Shown here: positions 1,468 through 62,611 of the stretch, one piece after another
How positions within the stretch are numbered: position 1 is the stretch's first letter
Layout of the letters: each line of letters begins with the position of its first letter
IMG/VR virus record: IMGVR_UViG_3300025087_000051
Length of the DNA: 64,000 bases
Origin: a virus
Lineage: Duplodnaviria; Heunggongvirae; Uroviricota; Caudoviricetes
Reading direction: 5' to 3' (one strand)
The notes under the pieces: generated by a model
Database searches by the model: none
What the model was told of the DNA's origin: nothing
Seen by the model: only the letters and a program-made list of their open reading frames with translations
Made by a program: the position numbers and the translations under genes

Positions 1468-1518
1468 TCGTTGTAATTGTTGAGTTGTATCGTTCTTTTT
1501 ATGTTTATTGTTATTAAT

Positions 1519-1568
1519 AGGTGTGGGGTTAAGCAAAAAATCTCACACCTATTTTTTTAGAAATTTTC
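1519..1568 (+). terminator. putative intrinsic terminator
   Basis: AGGTGTG...CACACCT stem followed by T7 run directly after CDS 553-1467 (loop is long, so moderate). Confidence 0.4.
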
Positions 1569-1589
1569 TCAAAAAGGTGGATAAAACCT

Positions 1590-2375: not shown

Positions 2376-2495
2376 TATGGATAAAAATCTTCTTAAAAAA
2401 TCAGGCACAGTAGCGGTAATAATTATTTTCTGTCTAGTCGTTGGATGGTTCGGTATCGAACTTTCAGAAATATTGTATTGGAGGGTAGATTGATC

Positions 2496-3077: not shown

Positions 3078-3078
3078 C

Positions 3079-5217: not shown

Positions 5218-5230
5218 AGGATATAATCAT

Positions 5231-6094: not shown

Positions 6095-6111
6095 AACAAG
6101 AAAGAAATAAT

Positions 6112-9327: not shown

Positions 9328-9524
9328 GTAACAGATTTGTTTTTGATAAAGAATTTAAAGAAAAACTGAACGCTGTAAATGAAGCTGCACACAAATATTT
9401 TAAAATAAAAGCAGAATATGATGAAGCCACTGATAAATTACATTTACTCCTAGATAAACAAAAAGAAACCGATAAAGAATTATACCAACTTGTGAACTAC
9501 TCTAACCAATCAGAGATTGGATAG
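9324..9524 (+). CDS. hypothetical protein (3' end overlaps tnpB convergently)
   Basis: 66-aa ORF, start overlaps previous stop. Confidence 0.35.
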   Translation: MSNRFVFDKEFKEKLNAVNEAAHKYFKIKAEYDEATDKLHLLLDKQKETDKELYQLVNYSNQSEIG

Positions 9525-9640
9525 GGCTTCTTGGTTCTCAGGCAGCATCTGGCATAAGCTGCCTCCCCAAGCGTAACTTTCCGTAGTTCCTACGGTAGAT
9601 TTTTTTAGAATATTTAGTGAGGCATTGTGGTCTCTATCAA
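9440..9640 (-). ncRNA. putative omegaRNA/reRNA scaffold overlapping tnpB 3' end
   Basis: hairpins GGCAGC-11nt-GCTGCC and CCGTAG-GAA-CTACGG inside/after the last 35 codons of tnpB, the usual omegaRNA position; exact ends not determinable. Confidence 0.35.
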
Positions 9641-10670: not shown

Positions 10671-10671
10671 C

Positions 10672-10791
10672 TATTTTTTTCTGTTCCAATAAGGACTTTT
10701 ACATTTAGGGCAAATAACAACCTCAGACTTTCTTGGTGTCCATAGATGTTTGCATCTTTCACAGGCAAGTTTAATAATTTTAATTTTCATA
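10672..10791 (-). CDS. zinc-ribbon micro-ORF immediately upstream of and abutting tnpB
   Basis: 39-aa MKIKIIKLACERCKHLWTPRKSEVVICPKCKSPYWNRKK, CxxC...CxxC; stop abuts tnpB ATG (coordinates approximate to 1-2 nt). Confidence 0.3.
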
Positions 10792-35045: not shown

Positions 35046-35171
35046 ATGAAACGTATCAATTGCCATTTAACAAATCTTCAAATCAAACAATTAAAAAAAC
35101 TATCAAAAGAAGTTGGGCTGTCGGTTGCTGAAATTATTCGCCGAGCAATAGATGAATATATAACAAAATGA
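35046..35171 (+). CDS. ribbon-helix-helix micro-protein translationally coupled to tnpB
   Basis: 41-aa MKRINCHLTNLQIKQLKKLSKEVGLSVAEIIRRAIDEYITK; stop TGA overlaps tnpB ATG (ATGA). Confidence 0.45.
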   Translation: MKRINCHLTNLQIKQLKKLSKEVGLSVAEIIRRAIDEYITK

Positions 35172-36292
35172 AAAAGACATTTCTTTATCGTGCGAAAATA
35201 AACAGACAGACAGAATCTAATTGCTGTCGATGGATTGAAATTTGTCGTGATGTTTATAACTCCGCATTAGGGCAAAGAATTAATACGTACAAGGAAGCCG
35301 GAAAATCTATAACCAAAAACAATCAAGTAACACAATTACCTTTAATTAAAAAAGATTTTCCAAGTATTAAGATAGTTAGCTCTCAAACACTTCAAGATGT
35401 GATTGAACGTCTCGATAAAGCCTATAAAGCATTTTTTCGTAGAGTAAAGTTTGGAGAAAAAGCCGGATTTCCCCGTTTTAAGAATCGAAACAGCTATAAT
35501 TCCTTCACCCTTAAACAGCATGGATATAAACTTGATGGTAGGTATTTATATATTAAAAACATTGGCAGGTTCAAACTCTTTCTTTCCAGACCGATTGAAG
35601 GAAACGTCAAAACCGTTACCATCAGAAAGATGCCTACAGGTAAATGGTATGTATCTTTTTCTTGTGATGATGTTTCTGCCAAGCAAGTCTCAATAACCGA
35701 TAAAATCATAGGAATAGACGTAGGAATTAAAAATTTCTGTGTTGACAGCGAAGGAACATGCGTTAAAAACCCTAAATTTTTATTTGATTCTGAAAAAGAA
35801 CTTAGACGTAAACAGAGAAAACTTTCCAGAAGAAAAAAGTGTTCTAGCCACTGGAACAAAGCAAAAATATTAGTTGCTAAAGTGCATGAAAAAATAACAA
35901 ATCAAAGAAAAGACTTTTTACATAAGATTACCAATAAATATATTAATAATTTTCAAACTATTTATATTGAAGATTTAAAGATTAAAAATATGGTTAAAAA
36001 TAGATATTTGAGCAAATCTATTTCAGACAGTAGTTGGGGTACTTTCTTTCGGTTTCTTTCTTATAAAGCTGAAAATGCTGGTAGGAAAGTAATTAAGGTG
36101 AACCCTGCCAATACTTCACAAAAATGTTCTACTTGCGGAGAAAAAGTCCAAAAATCTTTATCTGTTCGTATACATTCGTGTTCTTTTTGTGGCTTGAAAA
36201 TAGATAGAGATTTGAATGCTGCAATAAATATAAGTCAGGATGGGCAGTCCTGTCAGGCATTAACTAATGATATGTTAGAATTGGTAGCCTGA
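35168..36292 (+). CDS. tnpB: TnpB (second, divergent copy; ~40% identity to 9510-10670)
   Basis: IGIDVGI, YIEDLKIKNM, CSTCG...CSFCG, RDLNAAINI. Confidence 0.9.
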   Translation: MKKTFLYRAKINRQTESNCCRWIEICRDVYNSALGQRINTYKEAGKSITKNNQVTQLPLIKKDFPSIKIVSSQTLQDVIERLDKAYKAFFRRVKFGEKAGFPRFKNRNSYNSFTLKQHGYKLDGRYLYIKNIGRFKLFLSRPIEGNVKTVTIRKMPTGKWYVSFSCDDVSAKQVSITDKIIGIDVGIKNFCVDSEGTCVKNPKFLFDSEKELRRKQRKLSRRKKCSSHWNKAKILVAKVHEKITNQRKDFLHKITNKYINNFQTIYIEDLKIKNMVKNRYLSKSISDSSWGTFFRFLSYKAENAGRKVIKVNPANTSQKCSTCGEKVQKSLSVRIHSCSFCGLKIDRDLNAAINISQDGQSCQALTNDMLELVA

Positions 36293-45752: not shown

Positions 45753-46190
45753 ATGATTAAAAACTATACATCAACCGTACCAATAGAAAGATCAATTAGC
45801 CATATAGAATCTAAACTAGTCGCTCACGGTGCTAAAGATATTATGAAAAGATACGATTCTGTGGGCATACTCGAAAGTATCTGTTTCATTATCTTTGTCT
45901 CTGGTAGTAATCTTTCGTTTAAATTACCAGCCAAGATAGACGCCTGTTGCGAAATATTAAAATCAAAAATCAAAAGACCCAGAGATGGTACTTACGAAAA
46001 AGTCGAGAAACAAGCGGAAAGAACAGCATGGAAATTGGTATCTGACTGGGTAGATATTCAAATATCAATGATTGAATTGGAACAAGCCGAATTTTTAGAA
46101 GTATTTCTACCCTATGCCTATAATCCACAAAAACAACAAACATTTTACGAACAGATACGGGAATCAAAATTTTTGGCATTGACAAAATGA
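45753..46190 (+). CDS. hypothetical protein
   Basis: 145-aa ORF. Confidence 0.4.
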   Translation: MIKNYTSTVPIERSISHIESKLVAHGAKDIMKRYDSVGILESICFIIFVSGSNLSFKLPAKIDACCEILKSKIKRPRDGTYEKVEKQAERTAWKLVSDWVDIQISMIELEQAEFLEVFLPYAYNPQKQQTFYEQIRESKFLALTK

Positions 46191-46453
46191 AAGATATTTA
46201 TGAATGGGGACTTATTCCTAGCCATAGAGTCGGGTTATTACATAGATGGACTGTTGGTAGTGGAAAAACATTTCTTCATACTTTGGTATGGGTTTCGTCT
46301 TGCGGATTACACTATTGTAATGAACATAATCGTCCAGAGCCTGGTTTTACAACTGAAGGAATAAAATGTGAAAAATGTCGAAAAGAGCAAAAAAGAGTTA
46401 ATAAGATTTTAAACATTAACAAAATAAAAAAGACAATAAATGGGAATGATTAA
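46187..46453 (+). CDS. Cys-containing small protein
   Basis: 88-aa ORF. Confidence 0.35.
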   Translation: MKDIYEWGLIPSHRVGLLHRWTVGSGKTFLHTLVWVSSCGLHYCNEHNRPEPGFTTEGIKCEKCRKEQKRVNKILNINKIKKTINGND

Positions 46454-46724
46454 AAAAATAAACTTTCATAAAATCTTTGGAAGCGTAGTCCGTACAATTT
46501 TTATCTTTTCTGTCTTCACATTACTTTTTATAATATTTCATCACACAATAAAGATTAAAAAATTAGAAAAAGACATAACAGTTTTAAAAGAAGAAATGTC
46601 TAATATCTGTGATGCCGGAATGAAAACTGTTGAAGGATTAATGAATAATCAGGACGGACTTATCGAAGCATTTAATGAAATTCAGAAATTAAAACAGACA
46701 CAAAAGGGAATGATATACCACTGA
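46440..46724 (+). CDS. membrane-anchored coiled-coil protein
   Basis: N-terminal TM. Confidence 0.35.
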   Translation: MGMIKKINFHKIFGSVVRTIFIFSVFTLLFIIFHHTIKIKKLEKDITVLKEEMSNICDAGMKTVEGLMNNQDGLIEAFNEIQKLKQTQKGMIYH

Positions 46725-46857
46725 TGCTATTAATAAAACAAATACTTGTTACCGTTTCGATTCTTTCGTATTCTGGAATAATATATTCTGAAACGAACGA
46801 CAATAAACGTGTTAGAGTTCTAATGGCTTTGATTCCATTAATTGTTTTGCCTGTTAT

Positions 46858-47079
46858 TTGGTTTTTATAAACAAGATGGAATTTGATAAATACTTACAAT
46901 CCCAAGCCGTAATTCATTGGAATAACATAGTAAAAAAGTTAAGAGAAGAAGCGAGAAAATTAAAAGAACAAGAAATGAAACGATTAAGATTGTTGCAAGA
47001 AACTACTGATTTTATAAATGAATGCAATAGAGATTTAGACAATATCGAAAGAATATTTTTCGTAGAAAGGGAAAACTAA
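46858..47079 (+). CDS. hypothetical protein
   Basis: 73-aa ORF. Confidence 0.35.
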   Translation: MVFINKMEFDKYLQSQAVIHWNNIVKKLREEARKLKEQEMKRLRLLQETTDFINECNRDLDNIERIFFVEREN

Positions 47080-47082
47080 ACA

Positions 47083-47289
47083 ATGACAACAGACAATATA
47101 AATCATCCGCCACATTACAAATCAAACGGTATGGAAGCTATTGACGTGATAGAGGCGTTTGGTCTTGGATTTCATCTTGGTAATGCCATGAAATACATTC
47201 TTAGAGCTGGCAGAAAAACAGAAGACGATACGGAAGATACAAAAAAGGCTATTTGGTATTTAAATCGTTATTTAGGAGAAAAACAGTGA
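47083..47289 (+). CDS. DUF3310-like phage protein
   Basis: NHPPHYKSNGMEAIDVIEA pattern recalled from phage DUF3310 family (from memory). Confidence 0.45.
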   Translation: MTTDNINHPPHYKSNGMEAIDVIEAFGLGFHLGNAMKYILRAGRKTEDDTEDTKKAIWYLNRYLGEKQ

Positions 47290-48824
47290 AAATAATTAAA
47301 CCGTCAATTGAAATTTTAGACGTATTAGACCAAACCACTATTTTGAAAAGATTGGAATTAGTTGGAAGGACTTGCTATAAATCAGAAGATAAAATAACCG
47401 ATAATTCTTGTGTTGAGTTTATCAGAAAGATTATTAAGTCTGGACACCATTCCATAATTGAACATTACGATATTTCGGTTAGAGTAATATGTGATAGGGG
47501 CGTTACCCACGAAATAGTTAGACATAGAATAGCCAGCTATGCTCAGGAATCTACACGATATTGTATATCGGGAGACATGGGTTTATCTTTTAAAAATCCT
47601 CATCAAAAATTTACTGTGAGCCAACTTTATAACAATCGAATTAACTCAAAAAATAATTCGTGGAAAAGAATGTTTATTAAACAACTTAACGAAGACACCG
47701 GATATATCACTTTTGACAAAATAAAAAATATTGTTTATACAGGATTTAAAGAGGTAGTAAAAATTACTACTTCTCTTGGGTATTCTCTTATTGTTACGCC
47801 AGATCATAGAATAAAAACCAGTTATGGATATGCAAGGGCAGACAGTTTAGCGGGAAGGGAGATAGCTGTAAATGGAATTGGAATTTGTACAACAAAACAT
47901 GCCTACCAAGATAAAGATTGGCTTAAATATCACTATATTGTGTTAAACAAAACAGCAGTACAAATTGCCAATGATTTAAAAGCTAGTACCTCTGCCGTTA
48001 AGAAATGGATAAGATTGCATGGCTTTGCGAATACTAAACCAAAAAGCTATTGGAATAAGGGAAGAAAACCCTGGAATAAAGGACTTACCGAAAGCAATGA
48101 TATAAGAATCAAAAAACAAGGAGATGCCCTACGAAAATTCGGATATAGAAAAGGAGAAAAAAAAAGACAGAAAACAATATCTATAAGAACTTATCATAAA
48201 ACCGTAAAAGATAAATGTGTTTTGTGTGGAGGTTGTTTATCCCTTCATGTTCACCACAAAAACAGCAACAGGATGGATAATTGTACTGACAATTTGATAA
48301 CCTTATGCCCCTCTTGTCATGGGGGTGTCCATAATAAAAATCTATCATTTGTATATTTTGATAAAGTAGTATCCATAGAAAAATTGCCTAATACTATTCC
48401 TGTTTATGATATTGAGATGGGAGGGCAATATCATAATTTTGTAGCAAACGGTGTGGTTGTGCATAACTGTAATTATGCAAGCGGTAAATTTGGAAATGAA
48501 ATCACTGTTATTGAACCTTGTTTTTGGAATATAGATAACGATGAAAAGATGTTAGTATGGGAATTAGTCATAAAAGCCTCAGAAGCCGCATATCTCAAAC
48601 TTATAGAACTTGGAGCAACTCCACAAGAAGCGAGGAGTGTGCTTCCAAATTCTTTGAAAACAGAAATAATTGTTAAATTCAATCTTCGAGAATGGAGACA
48701 TTTCTTAACTTTGAGAACTTCTAGGGCTGCTCATCCACAAATGAGAGAAGTGACAAACATGATACTAACAGAGTTTAAATCAAAATTACCAATTATTTTT
48801 GAGGATATATCCAATGAAAATTAA
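47253..48824 (+). CDS. thyX: flavin-dependent thymidylate synthase ThyX interrupted by an HNH intein
   Basis: N-extein IVRHRIASYAQESTRY (RHRx7S...SxRY ThyX motif); C-extein ARSVLPNS...NLREWRHFLTLRTS; exteins total ~221 aa. Confidence 0.8.
   Translation: MVFKSLFRRKTVKIIKPSIEILDVLDQTTILKRLELVGRTCYKSEDKITDNSCVEFIRKIIKSGHHSIIEHYDISVRVICDRGVTHEIVRHRIASYAQESTRYCISGDMGLSFKNPHQKFTVSQLYNNRINSKNNSWKRMFIKQLNEDTGYITFDKIKNIVYTGFKEVVKITTSLGYSLIVTPDHRIKTSYGYARADSLAGREIAVNGIGICTTKHAYQDKDWLKYHYIVLNKTAVQIANDLKASTSAVKKWIRLHGFANTKPKSYWNKGRKPWNKGLTESNDIRIKKQGDALRKFGYRKGEKKRQKTISIRTYHKTVKDKCVLCGGCLSLHVHHKNSNRMDNCTDNLITLCPSCHGGVHNKNLSFVYFDKVVSIEKLPNTIPVYDIEMGGQYHNFVANGVVVHNCNYASGKFGNEITVIEPCFWNIDNDEKMLVWELVIKASEAAYLKLIELGATPQEARSVLPNSLKTEIIVKFNLREWRHFLTLRTSRAAHPQMREVTNMILTEFKSKLPIIFEDISNEN
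47562..48467 (+). other. intein (302 aa) with HNH homing-endonuclease domain inside thyX
   Basis: starts CISGDMG (block A), HVHHKNSNRMDNCTDNLITLCPSCHGGVHN HNH, ends VYDIEMGGQYHNFVANGVVVHN followed by +1 Cys. Confidence 0.8.
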
Positions 48825-50124
48825 AAGTATTAAATTGGAAAATTTTGCAAAATATTCACATATTGAAGTATCTTTTGATAAAAATGTCACTTATTTAATA
48901 GGAAACAACGGTGCTGGTAAAACCACGCTGGGTCTTAACGCTATATGGTTTTTATTTTGTGGAATTGCTGAAAAAAGTAGCAAAGGCAATAATCCTTTAA
49001 TTGCGGAGCGATTCAGGTTTATTGGTGAAAATGGTGCTTCGGCTAAAGGTGAAATGGTACTGATAGACGAGGTGCGAAAAGTAAAAATCAAAGTTATACG
49101 AAAATTGACCAAAGATGGCACTTCGTTAAGTTTTGAAGCTCCCGAAGGCTTAGTATTAAATCAGGAATGGCTCAATGATTTATTCAATGTATTTTTAATC
49201 TCTCCCCGATCCTTCCTTGCCTTAGATAGTAAAAAACAGACCGAAGCGTTAGGTATTGATACGAGTAAATTTGACGCTGAACTTGAAAATCTTAAATCGG
49301 AACACACCTATACCAATCGAGAATTAAAAAGCATCGGATCACTTGAAGCGGTTCTACCCACCGATGAAGTCGATATAGAATCTCTGATCGAAACCAAAAA
49401 CAATATGGTAAGTTTCAATACGAAACAAATAGCATTAGAACAAAACATTGTGAGGAATAAAGAAAAGTTAAAATTGTGCGAACAAGAACTGGACGGATTG
49501 ATAAAACAAAAAATAGAAATAGAACAAAAAATTGAAAAATTAGACAACAAAATACAAGCTGGCGAAAAACATATATCGTCCATGCCTCGACCCGAAGAAC
49601 TAAGAAGCATGGAACAAATAGACAACGAAATTAAAGAAGCTACCCAAAACAATAATAAAAACATTGCTTATCGAAACTATCTGCAACAGAAGCAAAAACA
49701 TGACCAGAAATTAACCGAGTTGAATAATAATAAAGAGAAGCAATCCGAAGTAATAAAGAACCGCATAGATTATATCCGATCCAAAAAGCTACCATTTGAC
49801 AATCTCGAAATAAACGAAAATGGTGAATTATTATTATCCGGTAAACCTATCAAAGAGCAATATTTCGCTACGGGTGAGTTATTAAAGATAGTGCCTGTGT
49901 TGATTAGCTCGCTCAATCCTGAATTAAAATATGTATTTATACAGCAATTTAACCTTCTCGATGAAAAACAACAAAAAATAGTTGAGGAATATTTGGTTGA
50001 CAAGGGATTCCAGCTAGTAGCCGAGATCGTAGGCGAAAAAGAAATAGAGAGTAAGCACTGTATAGTTTTGAAGGATATGCACCTAGTAACTAAGAAAGAA
50101 AATGTTGCAGAGAATATATTATGA
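48799..50124 (+). CDS. SMC/SbcC/RecF-like ABC ATPase with coiled-coil
   Basis: N-terminal KLENF...LIGNNGAGKTT Walker A; long coiled coil; C-terminal LLDE Walker B/D-loop. Confidence 0.6.
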   Translation: MRIYPMKIKSIKLENFAKYSHIEVSFDKNVTYLIGNNGAGKTTLGLNAIWFLFCGIAEKSSKGNNPLIAERFRFIGENGASAKGEMVLIDEVRKVKIKVIRKLTKDGTSLSFEAPEGLVLNQEWLNDLFNVFLISPRSFLALDSKKQTEALGIDTSKFDAELENLKSEHTYTNRELKSIGSLEAVLPTDEVDIESLIETKNNMVSFNTKQIALEQNIVRNKEKLKLCEQELDGLIKQKIEIEQKIEKLDNKIQAGEKHISSMPRPEELRSMEQIDNEIKEATQNNNKNIAYRNYLQQKQKHDQKLTELNNNKEKQSEVIKNRIDYIRSKKLPFDNLEINENGELLLSGKPIKEQYFATGELLKIVPVLISSLNPELKYVFIQQFNLLDEKQQKIVEEYLVDKGFQLVAEIVGEKEIESKHCIVLKDMHLVTKKENVAENIL

Positions 50125-50363
50125 ATAAACTTGAGGAAAAACATATAACCTTCAAGAGACCTGATAGATGTCAATTCTGTAAACAGCGAATGTATTACAT
50201 TGACGATAAAAGACATATTTCTGAAAGAGAAATCAGAGTAATTAAAAAATCGAAAAAAGATTATGATAGTTTTTATGTTCATTGGAAATGCTGGAAGGCA
50301 GGACTGAAAATAATCAAAAACACGATAGGATCATACGAGTTATGGTATGAGGATTTGAAATGA
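50121..50363 (+). CDS. zinc-binding small protein
   Basis: CQFCKQ ... HWKCW. Confidence 0.35.
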   Translation: MNKLEEKHITFKRPDRCQFCKQRMYYIDDKRHISEREIRVIKKSKKDYDSFYVHWKCWKAGLKIIKNTIGSYELWYEDLK

Positions 50364-50563
50364 CCATAATCAAATCAAATAAATCTGGCAGTTCTAAAAA
50401 AGACTACGAATTTACCGAAAAGCAGAAATTTGTAGCCAAGTTAATTTCCGATTATGGATTAGATCGGATAGAAGCAGTTAAATGGTGCTGGGTATTTAAA
50501 GCGTTTGGTGTTGAAACGTGCGAAGAAGCATTTGAAAAATATGAAATGAAAGCAAATCAATGA
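50360..50563 (+). CDS. hypothetical protein
   Basis: 67-aa ORF. Confidence 0.35.
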   Translation: MTIIKSNKSGSSKKDYEFTEKQKFVAKLISDYGLDRIEAVKWCWVFKAFGVETCEEAFEKYEMKANQ

Positions 50564-50586
50564 AAATACAGAAAAGGAATTAAATC

Positions 50587-51063
50587 GTGGTAGAAGCTGC
50601 TTTCGGTAATATATGGGACTTCCATTCGCAAGGCAAATGGATTGTTATAACTACCAACGGTACTGTTAAGTCTGATGGGTCGTGTGTAATGGGACGTGGC
50701 GTAGCGAAACAGGCAAAAGAAAAACATCCATCGTTACCGTTTTGTGTTGGCGATATGATTAAACGAAACGGAAACCATGTTTATATGTTTCCTCAATATA
50801 AAATTATTACATTTCCAGTCAAACATAATTGGTATGAAAAAGCCGATATTAATTTAATCGAACAAAGCACAAAAGAACTCAAAGAGATGATATTGCAATT
50901 AGACCAGAATGTTTCGTTACCAAGCGATACATTCTTTTATATGGTTCGTCCAGGCTGTGGTAATGGACAGTTGAATTGGAAAGACGTGAAGCCTATTCTT
51001 GAAAAATATTTAGACAATCATTTCATTGTTGTGGAAATAAATACGAAACAAGGAGAGAGATAA
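50587..51063 (+). CDS. macro-domain-like (ADP-ribose binding/hydrolase) protein (tentative)
   Basis: IVITTNG...DGSCVMGRGVAKQ resembles macro NAAN...GGGV motif pair. Confidence 0.45.
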   Translation: MVEAAFGNIWDFHSQGKWIVITTNGTVKSDGSCVMGRGVAKQAKEKHPSLPFCVGDMIKRNGNHVYMFPQYKIITFPVKHNWYEKADINLIEQSTKELKEMILQLDQNVSLPSDTFFYMVRPGCGNGQLNWKDVKPILEKYLDNHFIVVEINTKQGER

Positions 51064-51069
51064 CGAAAA

Positions 51070-51693
51070 ATGATAGACCTTGAAAAATTTTGTAGAAAAA
51101 GTCATTATACAGGAACATTAAATGAACCGTTTAGCGATAATGACTATACTTATGCTTCTGATGGTTCTATAATAATCAGGGTTGATAAAATTCAAGAAAT
51201 GACAGAGAAAGATACTCATTCTAATAAAGCAAAAGAACTGTTTGAAAAAAATAAAATTAATGGAAATGAAATATGGACTGATCTGCCTAAATTTGAAGTA
51301 ATAGAAAAAAATTGTACCGAATGTGTTGGCACTGGCAAAATTATTATATGCAAAGAATGTAATAGCACTGGAAGTTTAGAATTTAGTAGCAATTATAACG
51401 ATTATGATGTTGAGTGTAAGTCTTGTTTTGGTAAAGATATTAAAGATGAAAAATGCGAAGATTGTGACGGTACTGGCAAATATAAAGAATATTCAAATCC
51501 TGTTATAGAAGTTCCTATAAGAAAAGATGGAAATTTAGAACAAATCGAAATAATAATAAATGGTAAATATCTGGAAATGATACAAGACTTGCCGAACATC
51601 AAAATAGCATTGCAAGGTGAAAAAGAACTTATAAAATTAAAATTTGATGGCGGTATCGGATTGCCGATGCCGATAGAACGAGGAAAGCCTTAA
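51070..51693 (+). CDS. DnaJ-type zinc-finger (CxxCxGxG x4) protein
   Basis: CTECVGTG, CKECNSTG, CKSCFGKD, CEDCDGTG. Confidence 0.55.
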   Translation: MIDLEKFCRKSHYTGTLNEPFSDNDYTYASDGSIIIRVDKIQEMTEKDTHSNKAKELFEKNKINGNEIWTDLPKFEVIEKNCTECVGTGKIIICKECNSTGSLEFSSNYNDYDVECKSCFGKDIKDEKCEDCDGTGKYKEYSNPVIEVPIRKDGNLEQIEIIINGKYLEMIQDLPNIKIALQGEKELIKLKFDGGIGLPMPIERGKP

Positions 51694-52685
51694 TGCTTCC
51701 AAACAAAAATAACTTTTGTGGTGGTAATTTCTTCGATTGGATCGAAGTAATGCTCATTGATAAATGTAATGGGACTTGTTCGTGGTGTATAGAAAACGAA
51801 GGATATAAACCGAAAAAAGTAGCAACGTGGCAGAAATTACTCGAAAAATTAATACAATCAAATAAAAAAAATATCATATTTCTTGGCGGAGAACCAACAC
51901 TTTATAAAGACCTTCGGCTCTTGATTACAAATTTATATTTAGTAAATAAAAATACATACATTACTACAAATGGTAGTTTGTTATGTGCAGAATATATAGA
52001 AAATAATCTGCCTGGATTGACTGGAATTAACATATCTATTCATCATTATCATTTAGGTATGAACAAACAAATAACTGGCATAAAATTAGAAGAATATCTG
52101 TTTCGTAGTGCAATTAGCAAAGCAAAAGAATTAAATATAAAAGTACGATTAAATTGTAATGTCATTAAAAAATATATAGACAACGAAAATGAAGTTAATA
52201 AGTATATAGAATTTGCCAAAAATATTGGCGCAAATAATGTGCGATTCGCAGAATTAAAACACGATGATAAAAATTTTATAGATATGGCTGAAATATTAAA
52301 TTATAAATACGGATTAAACGATGATCCTTTTTCCAATGGATGTATCAGAGATGTTGTAATAAATAACATGCCAATAAATTTTAGACAAATGTGTGGTCTA
52401 CAAACAACGAAAAGAATTGTTCCAGAAAATCCTGAGCAAATTAGTAAAAAAGTATTATATTATGATGGTAACTTTTACAATGGTTGGCAAGCCGAAAAAG
52501 AGGAAGATATGAAAAAAACAAAAAAAGAAACAAAAGCGGTTAAAGATTTTACTGAAACTGACAAATTATTAAGAGAATTGAAAAATGGGAAAATTACATT
52601 AAAAGAAGCAAAAATAAAGATGAATGTCATTCTTGAAGAAACAGAGAAAATTGCTGTGGCTGCTTCCGGTGGATGTAATTACTAA
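51693..52685 (+). CDS. radical SAM enzyme
   Basis: CNGTCSWC (CX3CX2C) and FLGGEPTL (GGEP) motifs; 330 aa with C-terminal extension. Confidence 0.7.
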   Translation: MLPNKNNFCGGNFFDWIEVMLIDKCNGTCSWCIENEGYKPKKVATWQKLLEKLIQSNKKNIIFLGGEPTLYKDLRLLITNLYLVNKNTYITTNGSLLCAEYIENNLPGLTGINISIHHYHLGMNKQITGIKLEEYLFRSAISKAKELNIKVRLNCNVIKKYIDNENEVNKYIEFAKNIGANNVRFAELKHDDKNFIDMAEILNYKYGLNDDPFSNGCIRDVVINNMPINFRQMCGLQTTKRIVPENPEQISKKVLYYDGNFYNGWQAEKEEDMKKTKKETKAVKDFTETDKLLRELKNGKITLKEAKIKMNVILEETEKIAVAASGGCNY

Positions 52686-52784
52686 AAAAACAAACAAGGC
52701 TATGACAATACTGATTAAATATCTTGTTGGGAGATGTGGTATTTATGGTATTGTTCATAGCCTTATGTTCAGAAAGGATGAATC

Positions 52785-52970
52785 GTGAAAAACAAAGAAG
52801 TGTTGATTACCCTGACTTACAAATATGAAATTAATCCTGAAAATTATCCCGAAGGACTTACGACAAAACAAATGATAGAAATGGATATAAAATCCTTTCG
52901 AGAAGATCCAGACGCATTGTTTGAATTGGTAGGCGATTCTCCGTTGACAATTTCTGGTAAAATAATCTAA
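52785..52970 (+). CDS. hypothetical protein
   Basis: 61-aa ORF. Confidence 0.3.
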   Translation: MKNKEVLITLTYKYEINPENYPEGLTTKQMIEMDIKSFREDPDALFELVGDSPLTISGKII

Positions 52971-52993
52971 AAAATAATGAAAGGAGCGGTGGC

Positions 52994-53245
52994 GTGGCTA
53001 CAACAAAAAACGAAATCGATGATTATTTCAAAGAACGTGGCAATTATGGGTTAATCCAGGTATCTTGTTGTGGAAAATGTAAATATTGTATAAATAATGA
53101 GTTGAAAACAATGACTACCAACAGGGTCTTTGCTACTTATCGTTATGTTTCTTTTTGTAAATATTGGAGTGATAAAAAGCCACCACCTTCTGGATATTTT
53201 GTTATTGATCGTTCGGGGCTTTGCGATAAATTTAAAAAAATATAA
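52994..53245 (+). CDS. Cys-rich protein with GTG start; N-terminus paralogous to 53264 gene
   Basis: AAAGGAGCGGTGGCGTGGCTACA start context duplicated at 53264; MATTKNE vs MATVKSE. Confidence 0.4.
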   Translation: MATTKNEIDDYFKERGNYGLIQVSCCGKCKYCINNELKTMTTNRVFATYRYVSFCKYWSDKKPPPSGYFVIDRSGLCDKFKKI

Positions 53246-53263
53246 AAAGAAAGGAACGGTGAT

Positions 53264-54070
53264 GTGGCTACAGTAAAATCTGAGAAAAGAGTTTCAACAT
53301 ATCATGGGATTGAAAACTTATTCACCCCTGATGTTTTTTTCAACTTGATGGGCTGGACAGACAGAGAATGTCATACGGAAAGAATAAGATATGCAATTAG
53401 TAATTTTCATTATGCAGCAGGAGAAAAATTATCTTTTATTTTTGGAACTGAAAAGTTTGGAAATATTACAAGGGCAATAACAAGTTTGGGTGTTTTGTCT
53501 TTGGCTAGGTTTCACAATATTACCAATGAACAGATAGAAAAAATCATAGAAGATAGTAAGGGGAAAGGTTTTGAATTATTGAAAAAAGAAATTGAGTATA
53601 TTTGTTCATGTAGAAATATACATGCAGATAAAATAAAAGAAAAATTAACCGATATTACAAGTTTGTATGGTGGTAATAAATATAATAATATTTTGCGTAC
53701 AATGCTGAACATGAATGCAAATGATAGTGATATGGAAAACAGAAAAACAATAAATATCAACGCATTCCAGTTTAATACTATTTGCGAAAAAGAATTGAAT
53801 GAAAATATGTATAAATTGCAAAGAAATAGCGAAAATTGCGTTGTGAATATTTATATATCTAAAATCGTAAGCCATATCAATAATAAAATAAGAACTAACT
53901 ATAGGCGAAACGATACAAAATCTGAAATATGTCGTGGAGCGCACGTTGCAGGTTTGTATATTGTTTCAAAATGGATAATAAATGGTACATTGCCAAAGTA
54001 CGATGAATATTATTCGGCAAGTTTATTGTCTGATATTAAAGATGTTGTCTATTCTAATATTAAAGGATGA
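53264..54070 (+). CDS. hypothetical protein (GTG start)
   Basis: 268-aa ORF; AAAGGAACGGTGATGTGGCTACA. Confidence 0.45.
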   Translation: MATVKSEKRVSTYHGIENLFTPDVFFNLMGWTDRECHTERIRYAISNFHYAAGEKLSFIFGTEKFGNITRAITSLGVLSLARFHNITNEQIEKIIEDSKGKGFELLKKEIEYICSCRNIHADKIKEKLTDITSLYGGNKYNNILRTMLNMNANDSDMENRKTININAFQFNTICEKELNENMYKLQRNSENCVVNIYISKIVSHINNKIRTNYRRNDTKSEICRGAHVAGLYIVSKWIINGTLPKYDEYYSASLLSDIKDVVYSNIKG

Positions 54071-54400
54071 AAATGGCTAAACGTCTTTATGTCTTTATGA
54101 CTTTATGTCTTTATGTCTTTATGGCTGTACAAAGGGATGGAAATCAAAAATTTTCATCCGTTTATATGGCTAAACGTCTTTATGTCTTTATGACTTTATG
54201 TCTATATGACCGAATGGTCAAATGTCTTTATGACTTTATGGCTAGTATAAAGGGATGCTAGAAACGTGTAACGTAGTAAGGAAAATTTTTTCCTGTGTTT
54301 TTGTTAAATAAGTTGATAATGGCTAAATGACTGTATGGCTGTATGACTATGTGGCTAAATGACTAAATGGCTAAATGACTAAAAAGAACGAGGTACTTAA
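54070..54400 (+). repeat. tandem/micro-satellite-like repeat array (iteron-like)
   Basis: 38-nt ATGGCTAAACGTCTTTATGTCTTTATGACTTTATGTCT exact duplicate at 54073 and 54166; 8-10-nt units (GTCTTTATG, ACTTTATG, GGCTAAATGAC x3-4). Confidence 0.7.
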
Positions 54401-54402
54401 AA

Positions 54403-54573
54403 ATGATAAATCCAAGTACAATGAGTAACGGTAAGCCAACATGCTGTCCCTTCTGTTTGAGACCTTACGTTGAGCTTGACGGCAAAATAGTACCGGAATG
54501 TCTTTGTGGATCGTACTTTACAGCTAAAGAATTATGCGGCAGGCATGGGGTGAAGAATTGTCCAAGATGTTAA
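54403..54573 (+). CDS. zinc-ribbon micro-protein
   Basis: 56 aa; CCPFC ... CLC ... CPRC. Confidence 0.35.
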   Translation: MINPSTMSNGKPTCCPFCLRPYVELDGKIVPECLCGSYFTAKELCGRHGVKNCPRC

Positions 54574-54732
54574 ATCAAAACCAATACCTAAGGAAACGCT
54601 ATAATATTCGATTTAAGCCGTTTTTCTATTTCGGCGTGTCTGGGTCGAGGGATGGTGTCCATGTGGCAAATTTCATTAAAAGCGATACGCTTGGCAGTGT
54701 TATTTTTGATTGTGGTGGATGTCGGCGATCTT

Positions 54733-54847
54733 CGGCTGGCGATAGCCAGCAACATTTGTTGTGTCCCGCCCACGACGTTGACTACTTGTTTGTGTTGCAA
54801 CGGCACATTACCCCGATAAACAAAACCCCCGCCACAGGCGACATTTG
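54733..54847 (-). repeat. structured intergenic element, copy D (inverted)
   Basis: reverse complement AAATGTCGCCTGTGGCGGGGGTTTTGTTTATCGGGGTAATGT ... CAACGTCGTGGG ... GCTGGC-TATC-GCCAGC. Confidence 0.6.
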
Positions 54848-54879
54848 GTTATTGTTTTTGAATTATTTAATTTTTGCTA

Positions 54880-54908
54880 TTGACAGTTTCTAGAAAACAA
54901 ATTATATT
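54880..54908 (+). promoter_or_regulatory. sigma70-like promoter
   Basis: TTGACA-17nt-TATATT. Confidence 0.5.
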
Positions 54909-54959
54909 CTTGTTTGTTTGGAATATTTTATGTTTATTTTATTAAAAGGAGAAATTTTT

Positions 54960-55142
54960 ATGGTACTGTCCGTCCTCGAGGAAGTGGAAAGTTTCAAAAA
55001 TATTACTATTAGTGTTCCGGTGGATCAATACAAAAGATTGCAAGAAATAGCGAGAAGAAGCACTCTGTCGATTTCAAAGCTTGCAAAAAAAGGAATTGAG
55101 TTAGTGTTGAATGAATACGAATACGAATTCAAGAAATCTTAA
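54960..55142 (+). CDS. ribbon-helix-helix DNA-binding protein
   Basis: AAAGGAGAAATTTTT-ATG; ITISVPVDQYKRLQEIARRSTLSISKLAKKGIELVL RHH pattern. Confidence 0.45.
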   Translation: MVLSVLEEVESFKNITISVPVDQYKRLQEIARRSTLSISKLAKKGIELVLNEYEYEFKKS

Positions 55143-55156
55143 AAGGAATTAGTGTA

Positions 55157-55429
55157 ATGGCTAACAAAGGATTGGAAGAATATCATAAAAAATTAAAAGC
55201 CGGACTGATTAAAAAAACCAGAGACAAAAATAGACCGAGTGCTATAAAAGCAATTAGGGAAAAGTGTCTGGATTGTATATGTGCTAAGAGCGAAGGACGA
55301 ATTGACTGTCAGGTAGAAGATTGCAGCTTGTATTACTTCATGCCTTATGGAAGATTGAAAAATGAAAGAAAATCACAAAAAGCTAATCAAAAGAAAGAAC
55401 AAGATGCCGTATCTCCCGCAAGACATTGA
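55157..55429 (+). CDS. Cys-containing basic protein
   Basis: 90-aa ORF. Confidence 0.4.
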   Translation: MANKGLEEYHKKLKAGLIKKTRDKNRPSAIKAIREKCLDCICAKSEGRIDCQVEDCSLYYFMPYGRLKNERKSQKANQKKEQDAVSPARH

Positions 55430-55604
55430 AAATTTTAAAATAAAAGAAATCTGTTCGGGTTGTTTCGGCTTTATCGAAAAAGATTTATCTTGTAGCGAGA
55501 AAAAAGAATCATACCGAGACTATACAACAACTTGCTGTAAGTTTTATTTTGTCATGGTCGTCTCGGTAAAAATCTGAACAATTCCTAAAAAATTTGGAGA
55601 AATA

Positions 55605-56159
55605 ATGGAAAACAAAATAATTATGTTCGATTCTGGTGAGGCAGCACAGACAAAAACTATAACGGGATGGGTTTCTGGTAATGGCTTTTTTTACGGTAAC
55701 GATGAACAATCTGCAAGGTATATGGGATGCACTCATCAACGTTGCGAATGTGGAATGATTATGAAAAAAGGCTATACTATCTGTGAGTCGTGCCGACACA
55801 AAAAAGCATTGGAAAGATACAGAAATATGCCGTTTAAGGAATGGAACGGTGCTGATTTTTTATATTCAGAAGTAGCGGATAAATATTTTTACGATAGCGA
55901 AGAAATCTTTGATTATTGTGAAGACGAAGGTATCCTTGTAGAGTCTTTACGATTTATAATTTGCGAACCTGTATATCCAAAAGAAATCAATTTATCTGAG
56001 ATTTATTCGGATTTATTACCGGAATATTCTGGTGGCGAATTGCCACAATATTTAATAGACGCTGAAAATGAATTAAACCAAATAATCAGAGAAGAAAAAG
56101 AACTACTGTCTTGGATACCTGGAAAATATCGGACAGAAGTCGAGGGGAGGAAAGAATGA
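55605..56159 (+). CDS. zinc-binding hypothetical protein
   Basis: CTHQRCECG ... CESC. Confidence 0.45.
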   Translation: MENKIIMFDSGEAAQTKTITGWVSGNGFFYGNDEQSARYMGCTHQRCECGMIMKKGYTICESCRHKKALERYRNMPFKEWNGADFLYSEVADKYFYDSEEIFDYCEDEGILVESLRFIICEPVYPKEINLSEIYSDLLPEYSGGELPQYLIDAENELNQIIREEKELLSWIPGKYRTEVEGRKE

Positions 56160-56578
56160 TATTGAAAAAACTAAAAGGAAAAATAATAAAATTGGTGTTG
56201 GTTAGCTTTGTGTGTTTGAATACTTATTCCTCATTTGCTCTTAATGAAATTACAGAAAAAAAATATAAAACATTCGATGGAAAAATATTTAATAAGAAGG
56301 AAGACGCCCTGCTCCATGAAAAAATCCAGAAAAATGTCAACCTGCTTATGGAAATATTCAAAGAGGATACAGAAGCCGCTCTACAGCAAAAAGAACACGA
56401 TATGGATCACGACTTGAGATTGTATCTCTGGGGACACCGTCCTTATCGCTTAGACGAATACGAAGAAGAATATAGAAGTCATTTCTATAAATATTTTAAA
56501 ATATTAGAAGAAAAAGGAATCGAAATAGAAATCACACTTAAAAAAGATTATGGAACTTTTACAGTAAATAAAAAATAA
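56156..56578 (+). CDS. secreted hypothetical protein
   Basis: Met at 56156 followed by signal-like LVLVSFVCLNTYSSFA. Confidence 0.4.
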   Translation: MILKKLKGKIIKLVLVSFVCLNTYSSFALNEITEKKYKTFDGKIFNKKEDALLHEKIQKNVNLLMEIFKEDTEAALQQKEHDMDHDLRLYLWGHRPYRLDEYEEEYRSHFYKYFKILEEKGIEIEITLKKDYGTFTVNKK

Positions 56579-59905: not shown

Positions 59906-62611
59906 ATGGAAATCTCGAACAAAATCCCATTTTCTAATCCTAAATTTAAAAAAGGATTAACACCGCTACAGCACAAAACCGTCACGGACGTGCTATCAAG
60001 CAGAAAAACAATAACGATGATTAATGCTCCCACCGGATTCGGGAAGACTCCGACAGCTATGACCCTTGCCCACCATATAAACTACCCGAACCAATCTCTA
60101 TATCTTTGTAGTTCTAAAATTTTACAAGATCAATTGGCTGGGGATTTTACAGAAGCGTATCAATTAAAAGGGCGGGGAAATTATCCGTGCACACTTCTAC
60201 CCACCTATAATGCAGACCGATGCTTCCAACAATGCGATGAATATAAGTGCGGTGAAATTTCATGCGCTTATGAAGATGCGAAAAAAGAAGCCTTATCATC
60301 AACTTTTACCATTCTCAACATGCACTATTACGAGACCGAAACGAATTTTGTCGGTAGATTTTCAAAGCGTAAAACCGTAATAATTGACGAGGCAGATGTA
60401 TTAGAAGATATTTTGATAGATTTTATCGCACTAGACGTCCATCCGAAAACATTGGAAAAATTCAAGCTGGATCAGCCCAAATATGTGACTAAGTTAGATT
60501 CATGGAAGGAATGGGCGGATAAAACATTAAAAATATTAGAAGAAAAAGTTAAAAAGCTAAGAGCCGCCGAAGACCACTTGGATAGAGAATCAAAATTAGA
60601 ACTAAGTAAATTGTTGAGAATGTGTCTGAAATTAAATATGCTAAAAAACGATATAACGGAAGAGTGGATATTCGACCATGCCGAAAAATTTCGCTTTCAA
60701 CCTCTCTGGCTAGACACAAAACTTACCCAACAATATTTACTCAAACATGCGGAAAGATTCGTTATGATGTCTGCGACCATGCTCCCGAAAGTTATAGCGT
60801 GTAAATTATTGGGATTAGATATTAACGATGTGGATTATCACGAGATAGATTCACCTATACCCGTAGCGAATCGTCCCATTGTTTATAAGCCAATTAAAAA
60901 GCTAAAATACGGTGAATCAGAAGAAGATGTTTATAATGAAATTAAAAGATTGATAGAAGGGTACAAAGGAATTAAAGGGATTATTCATGCTGTGAGCTAT
61001 ACCCGTGCAAAGGCAATAGCAGGACTGGACAAGCGTTGCATCACTCATAATACCTACGATAAAAACGAAAAAATAAAACAATTCATAGACTCAAAAGATG
61101 GGATATTGGTAAGCCCATCGTGTGATCGTGGACTTGACCTGCACGGCGATCTAGCAAGATTCTGTATAATTCCAAAAGTTCCGTTCCCGAACACAACGGA
61201 CAAGGTGGTCTCCAAGCGTTTGTACAGCTCTCCCTTTGGTAGGGTATGGTACAGGGCTGTAACGGCGCAAACCATTGTTCAGATGGCGGGGCGTACTACT
61301 CGATGTTTTAGCACAGACACAGAAATCTTAACGATACATGGATGGAAAAAATACAACGAAGTAAATATGCACGATAAAACTTATTGTATTGATCAGAAAT
61401 CTTTTAACAATAAAACTAAACGTCCAGTTATGGAGGGTTCTTCGATATTAGTAGAAGGAGAAATAGAGGATGTCTATACATCAGATAAAGAAGAAAAAGT
61501 TATTAATATTAAAAATCAAAACATTGATGCTTTAGTTACTCAAGACCACGACATGATTGTTCAAATGAGAAAACAGAAAACTTATAGGGGGAAGTATAAA
61601 AAACCTTATGGAGTTTATGATTGGAAATACTGTCATCGTACAAATAGTCATGGATTAGAAAAAATAAAAGCATCTAAATTACCAGACAGATTTAAAATAC
61701 CACTAGCAGGAAAAATTATACGCAAAAACAAATCTCGTGCTAAAAAAGAATGGTTCTGGCTGATAGGTTTCATAATAGGGGATGGACATATTCATAAAAA
61801 CAAAAACGTCGTAACAATACATCAATCGGAAACCAACATAGACTTAATAGAAAAAATCAGAAAAGTTCTTGGTATACTTAAAATAGAATATTCAGAATAC
61901 AGACGACAAGTAAAAGGAACAAAAATAAATTTAAACGATAAGGAGTATTCAAGAAAAGAAGATATGATAAATTTTCAAATAACGGGTAAGTCTTCTTCGA
62001 TGATTAGGGATATGTTTAATAATGGCAAAAGAAGAAGGTATTCAAAAACAGTAACATACGTACAAAGAACTCACTTTTCTTTTAGTAAAAAAATAGGGGG
62101 AAAGCATAAAATAGATGGGTGGAAAGAAGTGGAAAAAATCATACCAAGATGGTGTCTGGAGAAGGGGTCGAAATCCCAACTTATTAAATTAATTCATGGT
62201 TTGGTTGACAGCGACGGAAGCTGGAAAAAAACTAATGGTAAATATAATAAAAACGTTGGAGGTTTTTACAACAAAAATAAAATCATAATAGATGCTTTTC
62301 AGGAGTTGTGCGTATTGACAGGATATAGAAGTTTGATTCGTAACAGAAGGAATCAATACGAAGTTTCCTTTTGTTGTCCCTCCATGATTGACTGTACGAA
62401 AAATAATGATGTAAAAGACGGAGGGATGTCTAAGGTGTGGTGTGTTAAAACAAATCATGGAAATGTTATAATGAGGAGAAATGGTAAACCTTTTTTGTGT
62501 GGAAACAGTGCCAGCGACTTTTCCACTGTTCATATACTGGACGCTGCTTTTGATTCGGTCGTAGAATTTGTCCCGAAATGGTTTCGAGATGCAATCAAGG
62601 TTGAATTTTAG
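59906..62611 (+). CDS. DinG/Rad3(XPD)-family FeS helicase interrupted by a LAGLIDADG intein in motif VI
   Basis: motif I NAPTGFGKT, four-Cys FeS cluster, DEAD box, motif VI QMAGRTTR | intein | SASDFSTVHILDAAF. Confidence 0.8.
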   Translation: MEISNKIPFSNPKFKKGLTPLQHKTVTDVLSSRKTITMINAPTGFGKTPTAMTLAHHINYPNQSLYLCSSKILQDQLAGDFTEAYQLKGRGNYPCTLLPTYNADRCFQQCDEYKCGEISCAYEDAKKEALSSTFTILNMHYYETETNFVGRFSKRKTVIIDEADVLEDILIDFIALDVHPKTLEKFKLDQPKYVTKLDSWKEWADKTLKILEEKVKKLRAAEDHLDRESKLELSKLLRMCLKLNMLKNDITEEWIFDHAEKFRFQPLWLDTKLTQQYLLKHAERFVMMSATMLPKVIACKLLGLDINDVDYHEIDSPIPVANRPIVYKPIKKLKYGESEEDVYNEIKRLIEGYKGIKGIIHAVSYTRAKAIAGLDKRCITHNTYDKNEKIKQFIDSKDGILVSPSCDRGLDLHGDLARFCIIPKVPFPNTTDKVVSKRLYSSPFGRVWYRAVTAQTIVQMAGRTTRCFSTDTEILTIHGWKKYNEVNMHDKTYCIDQKSFNNKTKRPVMEGSSILVEGEIEDVYTSDKEEKVINIKNQNIDALVTQDHDMIVQMRKQKTYRGKYKKPYGVYDWKYCHRTNSHGLEKIKASKLPDRFKIPLAGKIIRKNKSRAKKEWFWLIGFIIGDGHIHKNKNVVTIHQSETNIDLIEKIRKVLGILKIEYSEYRRQVKGTKINLNDKEYSRKEDMINFQITGKSSSMIRDMFNNGKRRRYSKTVTYVQRTHFSFSKKIGGKHKIDGWKEVEKIIPRWCLEKGSKSQLIKLIHGLVDSDGSWKKTNGKYNKNVGGFYNKNKIIIDAFQELCVLTGYRSLIRNRRNQYEVSFCCPSMIDCTKNNDVKDGGMSKVWCVKTNHGNVIMRRNGKPFLCGNSASDFSTVHILDAAFDSVVEFVPKWFRDAIKVEF
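61304..62506 (+). other. intein (401 aa) with LAGLIDADG homing endonuclease
   Basis: begins CFSTDTEILT; LIGFIIGDGHI and LVDSDGSW motifs; ends NGKPFLCGN then +1 Ser. Confidence 0.75.

Follow-up and report, generated by a model that had tools for sequence, protein, structure and literature searches.

Several described systems come close to the genes considered here. MftC modifies the C-terminal Val-Tyr of MftA (PMC9679996), and borosins occur in both fused and split architectures of enzyme and core peptide. In MoaA, the terminal carboxylate of the C-terminal tail RKKINMNYIGG enters the active site and triggers cleavage of S-adenosylmethionine (SAM), and an 11-mer peptide is active in trans (PMC12625886). 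AdfM, a phage-encoded DarG2-like macrodomain, removes DarT2 marks from DNA and protects chimalliviruses (PMC13309987). Here we describe a stretch of 64,000 nucleotides (nt) from a Caudoviricetes virus (IMG/VR record IMGVR_UViG_3300025087_000051), hereafter called the window, in which genes for a macrodomain protein, a zinc-finger protein and a radical SAM (rSAM) enzyme occupy positions 50587-52685. A previous reading of this DNA from its letters alone, the sequence-only reading, had reported three adjoining co-directional genes at this place, and the open reading frame (ORF) calls agree with it to the nucleotide. The functional unit, however, is the rSAM enzyme together with a peptide module ending in Cys-x-Tyr (CxY), and not the combination of macrodomain, zinc finger and rSAM enzyme. 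This holds under either of the two readings of the CxY tail that are compared below.

The radical SAM enzyme and its Cys-x-Tyr module

The rSAM ORF (51693-52685, + strand) encodes 330 amino acids (aa). A catalytic core, supported by the Pfam Radical_SAM match, conserved motifs and an AlphaFold2 (AF2) model, covers residues 1-266 (51693-52490, + strand), and a fused partner-peptide module covers residues 267-330 (52491-52685, + strand). The core contains the motif CNGTCSWC, of the form CX3CX2C (C25, C29 and C32; nt 51765-51788), as well as GGEP, and reaches 51.2 bits with Pfam Radical_SAM against a cut-off of 29.5 (E-value 2.2e-13). All features given for this gene in the sequence-only reading, i.e. 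a 330-aa radical SAM protein with CX3CX2C, GGEP and a C-terminal extension, are present, the extension spanning approximately residues 267-330; its informative feature is the invariant C-x-Y end, which that reading did not mention. The chemistry on nucleotides or the DNA modification suggested there may or may not apply to this enzyme. Further core motifs are NFCGG (with C9), TTNG, NISIHH, RLNCN (C155), RFAELK, GC (C217), RQMCGLQT (C234) and VLYYDG..Y.GW. No variation (100% invariance) is seen at C9, C25, C29, C32, C155, C217 and C234, or at many polar residues, across 200 unique members of the family. The AF2 model has a predicted local distance difference test score (pLDDT) of 85 and a predicted template modelling score (pTM) of 0.78, and its closest folds in the PDB are those of MoaA and viperin alike, with template modelling (TM) scores of about 0.5-0.55.

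At least 411 homologues with about 50% identity over the full length were found, and a HMMER pass over 1.84 billion (1.84e9) representatives gave 77 clusters at E<=1e-30. Among 185,579 species genomes, a single one, itself a metagenome-assembled genome (MAG), contained the family. A tblastn search of 50,697 INPHARED phage records yielded only weak matches to the core at 30% identity, in four Listeria phage fragments, and a fold search of BFVD returned no close member and no annotated viral relative. Pfam, NCBIfam and PHROGs hold no model dedicated to this family, and a literature search of incomplete coverage found no prior description of a phage rSAM enzyme with a fused peptide or an anti-defence role. 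As judged by these searches, the family is undescribed and almost exclusive to viral and metagenome sequence. Going by sample names, its members appear to come mostly from groundwater, other subsurface or sediment sites.

The C-terminal module of the window enzyme consists of a semi-conserved helix (LLRELKNGKITLKEAK), a variable linker and the end ASGGCNY, i.e. S-G-G-C-N-Y-COOH, with the codons of C328-x-Y330 at 52674-52682 and the stop codon at 52683-52685. The tail is modelled with low confidence, pLDDT being below 50 for residues 316-330. A set of 100 loci with an rSAM relative was assembled: metagenomes supplied 80, IMG/VR 11 and a genome 1, and several were retrieved by exact look-up. The rSAM profile matches 101 ORFs, of which 86 carry C-x-Y-COOH at their end, usually as S-G-G-C-x-Y. 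Across unique members with a tail, Cys at position -3 and Tyr at position -1 are found in 177/177, and Gly at position -4 in 144/177. The remaining 15 ORFs are 13 tail-less members of the family, one that runs off the contig end, and one unrelated second rSAM ORF (L012).

Every one of the 13 tail-less ORFs adjoins a small ORF with the same semi-conserved helix and the end GC[QVK]Y. This separate tail gene lies downstream, with its own Shine-Dalgarno sequence and start codon, at eight loci (L009, L101, L029/30/34/35 and L094/95), and upstream of the rSAM gene at five (L004, L006/L087, L081 and L102), and the split arrangement occurs in about eight lineages. The proteins encoded are 60-95 aa long. 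At L101 (core 403-1323, peptide 1327-1530) the core terminates with GWQSQRR and a stop codon, which is followed directly by the AAGGAG-N7-ATG of the tail gene; at L004 the peptide gene (5694-5966) precedes that of the enzyme (5983-6900). Ends of this type are rare elsewhere: of 5943 other ORFs of at least 40 aa at the rSAM loci, 19 end in C.Y, and these consist of 14 partner ORFs and 5 ORFs away from the rSAM gene. Clustering by BLAST of the ORFs flanking the rSAM gene revealed no shared neighbour beyond the CxY peptide, and a Pfam scan of 150 dereplicated neighbour proteins found no family in more than two of them. The counts of fused and split tails and the lack of any other recurrent neighbour make the CxY peptide module, fused or split, the sole constant partner of the rSAM enzyme.

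Some loci show additional features. At L094 (5880-6180), and likewise at L095, the TAA stop codon of the rSAM gene is followed by an in-frame remnant, KYGSSCQY and a stop, with a separate tail gene ending in GNGSCQY further on; the remnant could stem from a fusion that is decaying now that the tail module has been duplicated, or could reflect stop-codon read-through. At L068 (5275-5589) a 105-aa ORF ending in LMGCGY lies about 650 nt downstream of an rSAM gene with its own CxY tail, and may be an extra stand-alone CxY substrate, or due to chance. A weak match to ArdA lies beside the rSAM gene at L014. The second, 'faint' rSAM ORFs located 4-5 kb downstream at L012 and L014 were discarded as partners: they are unrelated to each other and absent elsewhere. 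Two known types of C-terminus were also rejected for the tail, i.e. a glycyl-radical tail, as there is no motif of the RVxG[FWY] type and the glycines are not invariant, and a GG terminus as in ubiquitin or MoaD, as it is C and Y that are conserved and not GG.

Two other clades share the core. A sister clade (P0296-P0358, outside the window) is 30-36% identical to the window enzyme and has the N-terminal sequence NPCxGxYGKCLDVK; its tails contain 2-6 repeated C-H dyads and often end in GCH (e.g. ...GCHGLPMGDNCHPAPNSDEEECHPTPRSNEEECHPGSG). From their sequence, these dyads resemble core sites present in several copies. In a third clade the protein stops directly behind the G-W motif and has no tail. 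C9, C217 and C234 are invariant across all three clades and C155 is not. Such a pattern fits a three-cysteine auxiliary cluster with an open site, and we infer that C9, C217 and C234 are ligands of an auxiliary [4Fe-4S] cluster in which one iron is left open.

Relation to known enzymes and role of the tail

The possibility that the enzyme is a divergent orthologue of a known rSAM enzyme, namely viperin (3'-deoxy-3',4'-didehydro-nucleoside triphosphate synthase), NrdG activase, QueE or MoaA, is raised by low-level matches to all four (and to PADLOC pVip at 1.9e-15), by the fold matches to viperin and MoaA, and by JGI names such as 'organic radical activating enzyme'. Every NCBIfam score is nevertheless far below the curated cut-off: 70.6 bits against 284 for MoaA, 48.3 against 180 for viperin, 29.6 against 131 for NrdG (NrdG2) and 29 against 260 for QueE. 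Moreover, only the generic rSAM core (residues ~18-200) aligns to MoaA or viperin, the family has invariant signatures of its own (the N-terminal NFCGG, MCGLQT and CxY), and the partner genes of these enzymes, MoaC, NrdD and QueC/QueD/FolE, were not found among the scanned window ORFs of at least 120 aa. Orthology to any of the four is therefore hardly credible. NrdG and QueE, the two identities which the sequence-only reading had named as contrary to its own proposal, were rejected on their scores and the lack of a cognate partner. For viperin, alignments end near residue 174, the N-x-H motif before the cluster aligns with E-V-N/M, and the TM score is about 0.5. Maturases of the rSAM-SPASM type, which act on peptides that are made by ribosomes and modified after translation (RiPPs), were rejected as well: C217 and C234 are the only invariant cysteines after the barrel, Pfam finds neither SPASM nor a RiPP recognition element (RRE), and matches to PqqE and SkfB are confined to the core.

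MoaA is the best sequence and profile match of the core (NCBIfam 1.1e-19, PDB profile 1.2e-14), and the resemblance extends to several details. The two share core sequence and fold, TTNG, the N-x-S motif and Arg/Lys pocket positions, the MoaA pocket positions kept being T91/N93 (in TTNG), N113, R152 (for K163) and R184 (for R192). Cysteines of the C-terminal region flank a β-hairpin, as in the auxiliary-cluster motif of MoaA, and both proteins have a flexible C-terminal tail, that of MoaA being functionally essential and able to act in trans. Unlike MoaA, however, the rSAM family has an invariant E18 where hidden Markov model (HMM) alignment places R17 of MoaA. MoaA R266 and R268 fall outside the alignment, and on non-conserved positions if C217 is manually placed on MoaA C264. 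The auxiliary cysteines are C9 and C217-x16-C234 in place of the CX2CX13C of MoaA, the tail ends in C-x-Y and not G-G, no MoaC partner was found among the ORFs scanned, and the family is restricted to phages and metagenomes. With the low score, these differences led to rejection of MoaA as the identity of the enzyme.

Two readings of the tail itself have to be weighed. We modestly favour the one in which the enzyme acts on its CxY tail, i.e. a self-modifying enzyme-substrate fusion, and would give it close to an even chance. In the mechanism proposed, C25, C29 and C32 would bind the rSAM cluster within a MoaA/viperin-like core, and the flexible tail would fold back into the barrel of the same or the partner subunit, so that the thiolate of the tail Cys could dock on the open iron of the auxiliary cluster. 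The 5'-deoxyadenosyl radical would then abstract a hydrogen from the Cys-x-Tyr segment, so that Cys and Tyr would become cross-linked and/or the C-terminal Tyr would undergo oxidative decarboxylation. A substrate role is suggested by the separate genes for peptides of 60-95 aa on either side of the enzyme gene, by the variable number of C-H dyads in the sister clade, and by the lack of any other conserved partner. More tentatively, these enzymes may constitute a self-modifying, essentially phage-restricted rSAM class in which radical modification is directed to a C-terminal Cys-x-Tyr or, in the sister clade, to Cys-His dyads.

Parallels for such an arrangement exist in two known systems. As in MftC/MftA, an rSAM enzyme is paired with a small peptide that has a conserved target at its extreme C-terminus, and in split lineages the peptide gene adjoins that of the enzyme; unlike in that system, no trace was found of a SPASM domain, RRE or MftB-like chaperone, most of the peptides are fused to the enzyme, and the motif is Cys-x-Tyr. 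Unlike for RiPP maturases of the rSAM type in general, no peptidase or tailoring genes are conserved near the rSAM gene. As in borosins of the OphMA type, the enzyme is fused to a C-terminal peptide (86 fused cases) and split variants exist (8 downstream, 5 upstream). The borosin enzymes, however, are SAM-dependent N-methyltransferases, unrelated in sequence and fold, and self-modification by the rSAM enzyme is a proposal.

Several points weigh against a substrate role. The tail chemistry is pure conjecture, and AF2 does not dock the tail (pLDDT <50). The flexible C-terminal tail of MoaA is an active-site sensor and not a substrate, and its tail peptide works in trans (PMC12625886), so that the existence of fused and split tails does not prove substrate status. 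The barrel contains the invariant polar or basic residues E18, H117, R152, R184, E187, K189, R231, R241 and Y256, which are more than a tripeptide would seem to need and are compatible with a small-molecule (nucleotide) substrate. The third clade has no tail at all, and a single-turnover phage enzyme would be biologically odd.

In the other reading, the CxY tail would complete or gate the active site as in MoaA, or serve as a Cys/Tyr relay of hydrogen atoms, in an enzyme turning over many times on a small molecule, plausibly a nucleotide, for host takeover or counter-defence. We consider this reading a rather unlikely but serious alternative. The MoaA tail, with its free peptide active in trans (PMC12625886), is a direct precedent; MoaA is the best sequence and profile match and shares the top fold match with viperin, several of its substrate-pocket positions are kept (T91/N93, N113, R152, R184), and the many invariant polar residues of the barrel and the implausibility of a single-turnover phage enzyme speak for the same reading, as does the location of the gene in variable regions beside anti-defence genes (the macrodomain here, the weak ArdA match at L014). 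A gating tail is less readily reconciled with separate tail genes that specify whole proteins of 60-95 aa with their own helix, upstream or downstream of the enzyme gene, or with the 2-6 C-H dyads of the sister clade, which are unlike a tail of fixed geometry. In addition, the triphosphate ligands of MoaA are not kept (R17 being replaced by E18, and R266/R268 by manual placement), and no MoaC, NrdD or QueC/D is encoded among the scanned window ORFs.

The macrodomain and zinc-finger genes

The macro ORF (50587-51063, + strand; 158 aa, GTG start) matches DarG of NCBIfam (1.9e-14, residues 31-145) and of PADLOC (1.9e-15), as well as phrog_335 (3e-21). Since the ORF covers no more than the macro half of DarG, its score stays below the full-length NCBIfam DarG cut-off. 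A Pfam scan of the ORF gave no match, and Pfam Macro matched 0/120 of the clusters listed for its family, which comprises at least 3523 clusters, mostly of stand-alone proteins of 140-160 aa. When a profile of 31 family members was compared with the PDB, four groups only were retrieved, i.e. the DarG macrodomains of M. tuberculosis (5m3i, 1.3e-12) and T. aquaticus (5m31, 1.6e-10), 7omu, and TARG1 (6.5e-8). Recognizable motifs are ITTNG (N24), VMGRGVA, FPVKHNW (K79) and RPGCGNGQLNW. N24 and K79 are invariant across the 31 homologues and align with N22 and K80 of T. aquaticus DarG (TaqDarG), FPVKHNW aligning with FPTKKHW of DarG. The catalytic Lys of TARG1, K84, is the counterpart of TaqDarG K80. 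In TaqDarG, DNA de-ADP-ribosylation is lost upon the K80A exchange, N22A being second in the strength of its effect (PMC5179494).

The protein is not a DarG antitoxin proper, as the C-terminal DarT-binding domain is lacking and no darT gene adjoins it, the neighbours being a 67-aa ORF and the zinc-finger gene. It resembles the DarG2 macrodomain and TARG1 in keeping the catalytic Asn and Lys, and these are its sole PDB relatives at profile level. AdfM, to our knowledge the only macrodomain anti-DarT factor characterised so far, similarly stands alone in a phage and lacks the DarT-binding C-terminal domain of DarG; unlike AdfM, the macro ORF belongs to a very large metagenomic family, and the phage here is not nucleus-forming. 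In view of the AdfM precedent, the homology and the conserved N24 and K79, the macro ORF is best read as an AdfM-like orphan antitoxin, an orphan macrodomain of the DarG2/TARG1 type with the probable activity of an AdfM-like DNA ADP-ribosyl glycohydrolase. It would most likely carry out K79-dependent hydrolysis of ADP-ribose from DarT-modified bases in the single-stranded DNA of the phage, and would in this way neutralise defence of the DarTG type in the fashion of AdfM. The sequence-only reading had proposed a probable macro domain countering host ADP-ribosylating defences. The domain assignment stands at the level of sequence profiles, and the predicted role is well supported by homology to the DarG2/TARG1 type with its catalytic residues kept.

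The zinc-finger ORF (51070-51693, + strand; 207 aa) contains CxxC pairs C82/C85, C94/C97, C116/C119 and C129/C132, and all eight cysteines are invariant among 19 homologues. It had been described as a four-fold CxxCxGxG finger; the DnaJ type and the four CxxC pairs are borne out, and in this copy two repeats are perfect and two are degenerate. The family profile matches the Cys-rich domain of E. coli DnaJ (1exk, 3.4e-7), whereas the single sequence reaches 22.7 bits with Pfam DnaJ_CXXCXGXG, below the cut-off of 32.7. The four CxxC(xGxG) repeats are shared with DnaJ, and a DnaJ/Hsp40 chaperone was nevertheless rejected: neither the J domain nor the C-terminal domains of DnaJ are present, and alignments to DnaJ models cover the finger only (~78-150). 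The finger instead lies within an unrelated, possibly β-clamp-like domain, residues ~79-139, a two-zinc finger of the DnaJ type, being inserted between N- and C-terminal segments. In the AF2 model (overall pLDDT 67.5) the flanks reach 75-89 and the finger stays below 50, and all of the best 50 Foldseek matches in the PDB are β sliding clamps, at weak scores (E 0.014-0.14, TM 0.34-0.38). A sequence-profile search of the family gave no match to DnaN. On the model, the two flanks may together form a β-clamp-like domain, which is only a lead because the Foldseek matches are weak. Homologues number 21; one of them, 31% identical, lies at L021 between a DnaG-type primase and a DEAD helicase, at a locus lacking macro and rSAM genes. 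This neighbourhood hints that the role of the zinc-finger protein is possibly replication-associated.

The sequence-only reading had taken the three genes together as one module, of which a unit for DNA modification or repair directed against host defence would be an example. Such a view has some appeal: the genes adjoin tightly in the same direction, the stop codon of the zinc-finger ORF overlaps the start of the rSAM ORF (TAATG, with GAGGA upstream), and the full trio is kept in the relatives L018 and L019. In three assemblies of a 98%-identical relative (L015-L017; L015:1-907), moreover, an 81-bp in-frame deletion fuses the macro to the zinc-finger protein, a weak Rosetta-stone hint that concerns these two. 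Among these assemblies is NCBI LBOI01000024, which had been placed in a 'Candidatus Woesebacteria' MAG by binning. The deletion is bounded by direct repeats CTTGAAAAAT(A/T)TT, the junction being ...KPILEK|FCRKSHY..., and it is a single microhomology event in one lineage.

The distribution of the genes largely refutes this view. When the 100 rSAM loci were searched with macro and zinc-finger HMMs, the partners were found only in close relatives (L015-L019 and L023), so that linkage outside this phage group is lacking, and family sizes differ strongly (at least 3523 for the macro ORF, 21 for the zinc finger and at least 411 for the rSAM enzyme). The zinc finger occurs alone at L020 and in a replication module at L021. 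The locus L020 is in synteny with the window, running from the ATPase through o67, the zinc finger and o268 to ResIII, methylase and helicase, and has neither a macro nor an rSAM gene. Because of the three genes only the zinc finger is kept in this synteny, the zinc-finger gene is a lineage-specific core gene of a small phage group, and the macro and rSAM genes are independent accessory insertions. We thus regard one common module as very improbable. That the region consists of three phage genes brought together by independent inheritance, and not of one system, combined with the substrate reading of the rSAM tail, has in our estimate an even chance of being correct as a whole.

Phage context and implications

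Upstream of the three genes lies an SMC/Rad50/AriA-like P-loop ATPase (48799-50124, + strand; 441 aa), separated from them by two small ORFs of 80 and 67 aa. It matches Pfam AAA_15 (9.3e-10), AAA_23 (5.1e-9) and SMC_N, phrog_1499 (1.5e-30) and PADLOC AriA (2.1e-16), in keeping with the SMC/SbcC-like ATPase that had been noted at this position. It is retained in the relatives L018 and L020, and is context only, forming no unit with the trio.

The window is almost entirely coded on the + strand and has a GC content of ~30-35%. It contains no tRNAs, an Rfam scan of 46000-56500 gave no match, and neither did a DNA search of 48799-54070 against INPHARED phages in distant mode. Other genes encode an N6/N4 methylase, an RNA ligase, an integrase, ERCC4 and PDDEXK nucleases, two helicases, ThyX and two TnpB proteins, and among the further ORFs scanned are an AbiEii-like nucleotidyltransferase, an SPFH/Band-7 protein and a 3D-domain protein. 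The ThyX gene (47253-48824) is split by an intein with an HNH endonuclease, and a DEAD/Helicase_C_2 helicase (59906-62611) carries a LAGLIDADG intein-like insert. The two IS605 OrfB/TnpB genes, with a Cas12f-like TNB domain, are located at 35168-36292 (+ strand) and 9510-10670 (- strand). The latter is the sole sizeable minus-strand gene; the + strand ORF with which it overlaps (9627-10745) is unlikely to be a true gene. A related TnpB gene adjoins the rSAM gene at L010 and L011. The large ORFs (300-590 aa) at 553-9014 and 19200-20690, in the window's first third, have no match in PHROGs (at 1e-5) or Pfam. The window looks like a very divergent phage, and one very far from those described if these large upstream ORFs are structural genes.

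The intergenic region that follows the 268-aa ORF (54065-54396) contains three clusters of octamer repeats with an 8-nt period and a consensus of approximately CTTTATGN / TAAATGRC, together with an 18-nt inverted repeat (54057-54074 / 54150-54167). The arrangement resembles an array of iterons or protein-binding sites and is possibly an origin or regulatory site. An ORF called at 54067-54261 is probably spurious.

As to the biology of these phages, the location of rSAM genes in variable regions beside anti-defence genes (the macrodomain gene here, and the weak ArdA match at L014) suggests, conjecturally, a role of the enzyme in host takeover or counter-defence. The macro family would add a large unannotated set of small phage proteins to the predicted anti-DarTG repertoire. 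A more general caution concerns phage accessory regions, where tight adjacency of genes, even with translational coupling, does not imply a functional module. The result on the rSAM enzyme is of greater importance than that on the macrodomain. If the enzyme does modify itself, its product could be a RiPP-like phage peptide or a protein-derived cofactor with a function during infection, e.g. as an inhibitor or signal, or as a redox cofactor in anoxic hosts. As far as we know, the radical SAM superfamily would thereby gain its first autocatalytic architecture resembling that of borosins. The rSAM enzyme and its CxY peptide form a compact, self-contained two-part unit. It occurs widely among uncultured phages, in nature both as a fusion and in split form, and could reveal new Cys/Tyr or Cys/His radical chemistry, a new mode of gating in rSAM enzymes, or a new phage effector.

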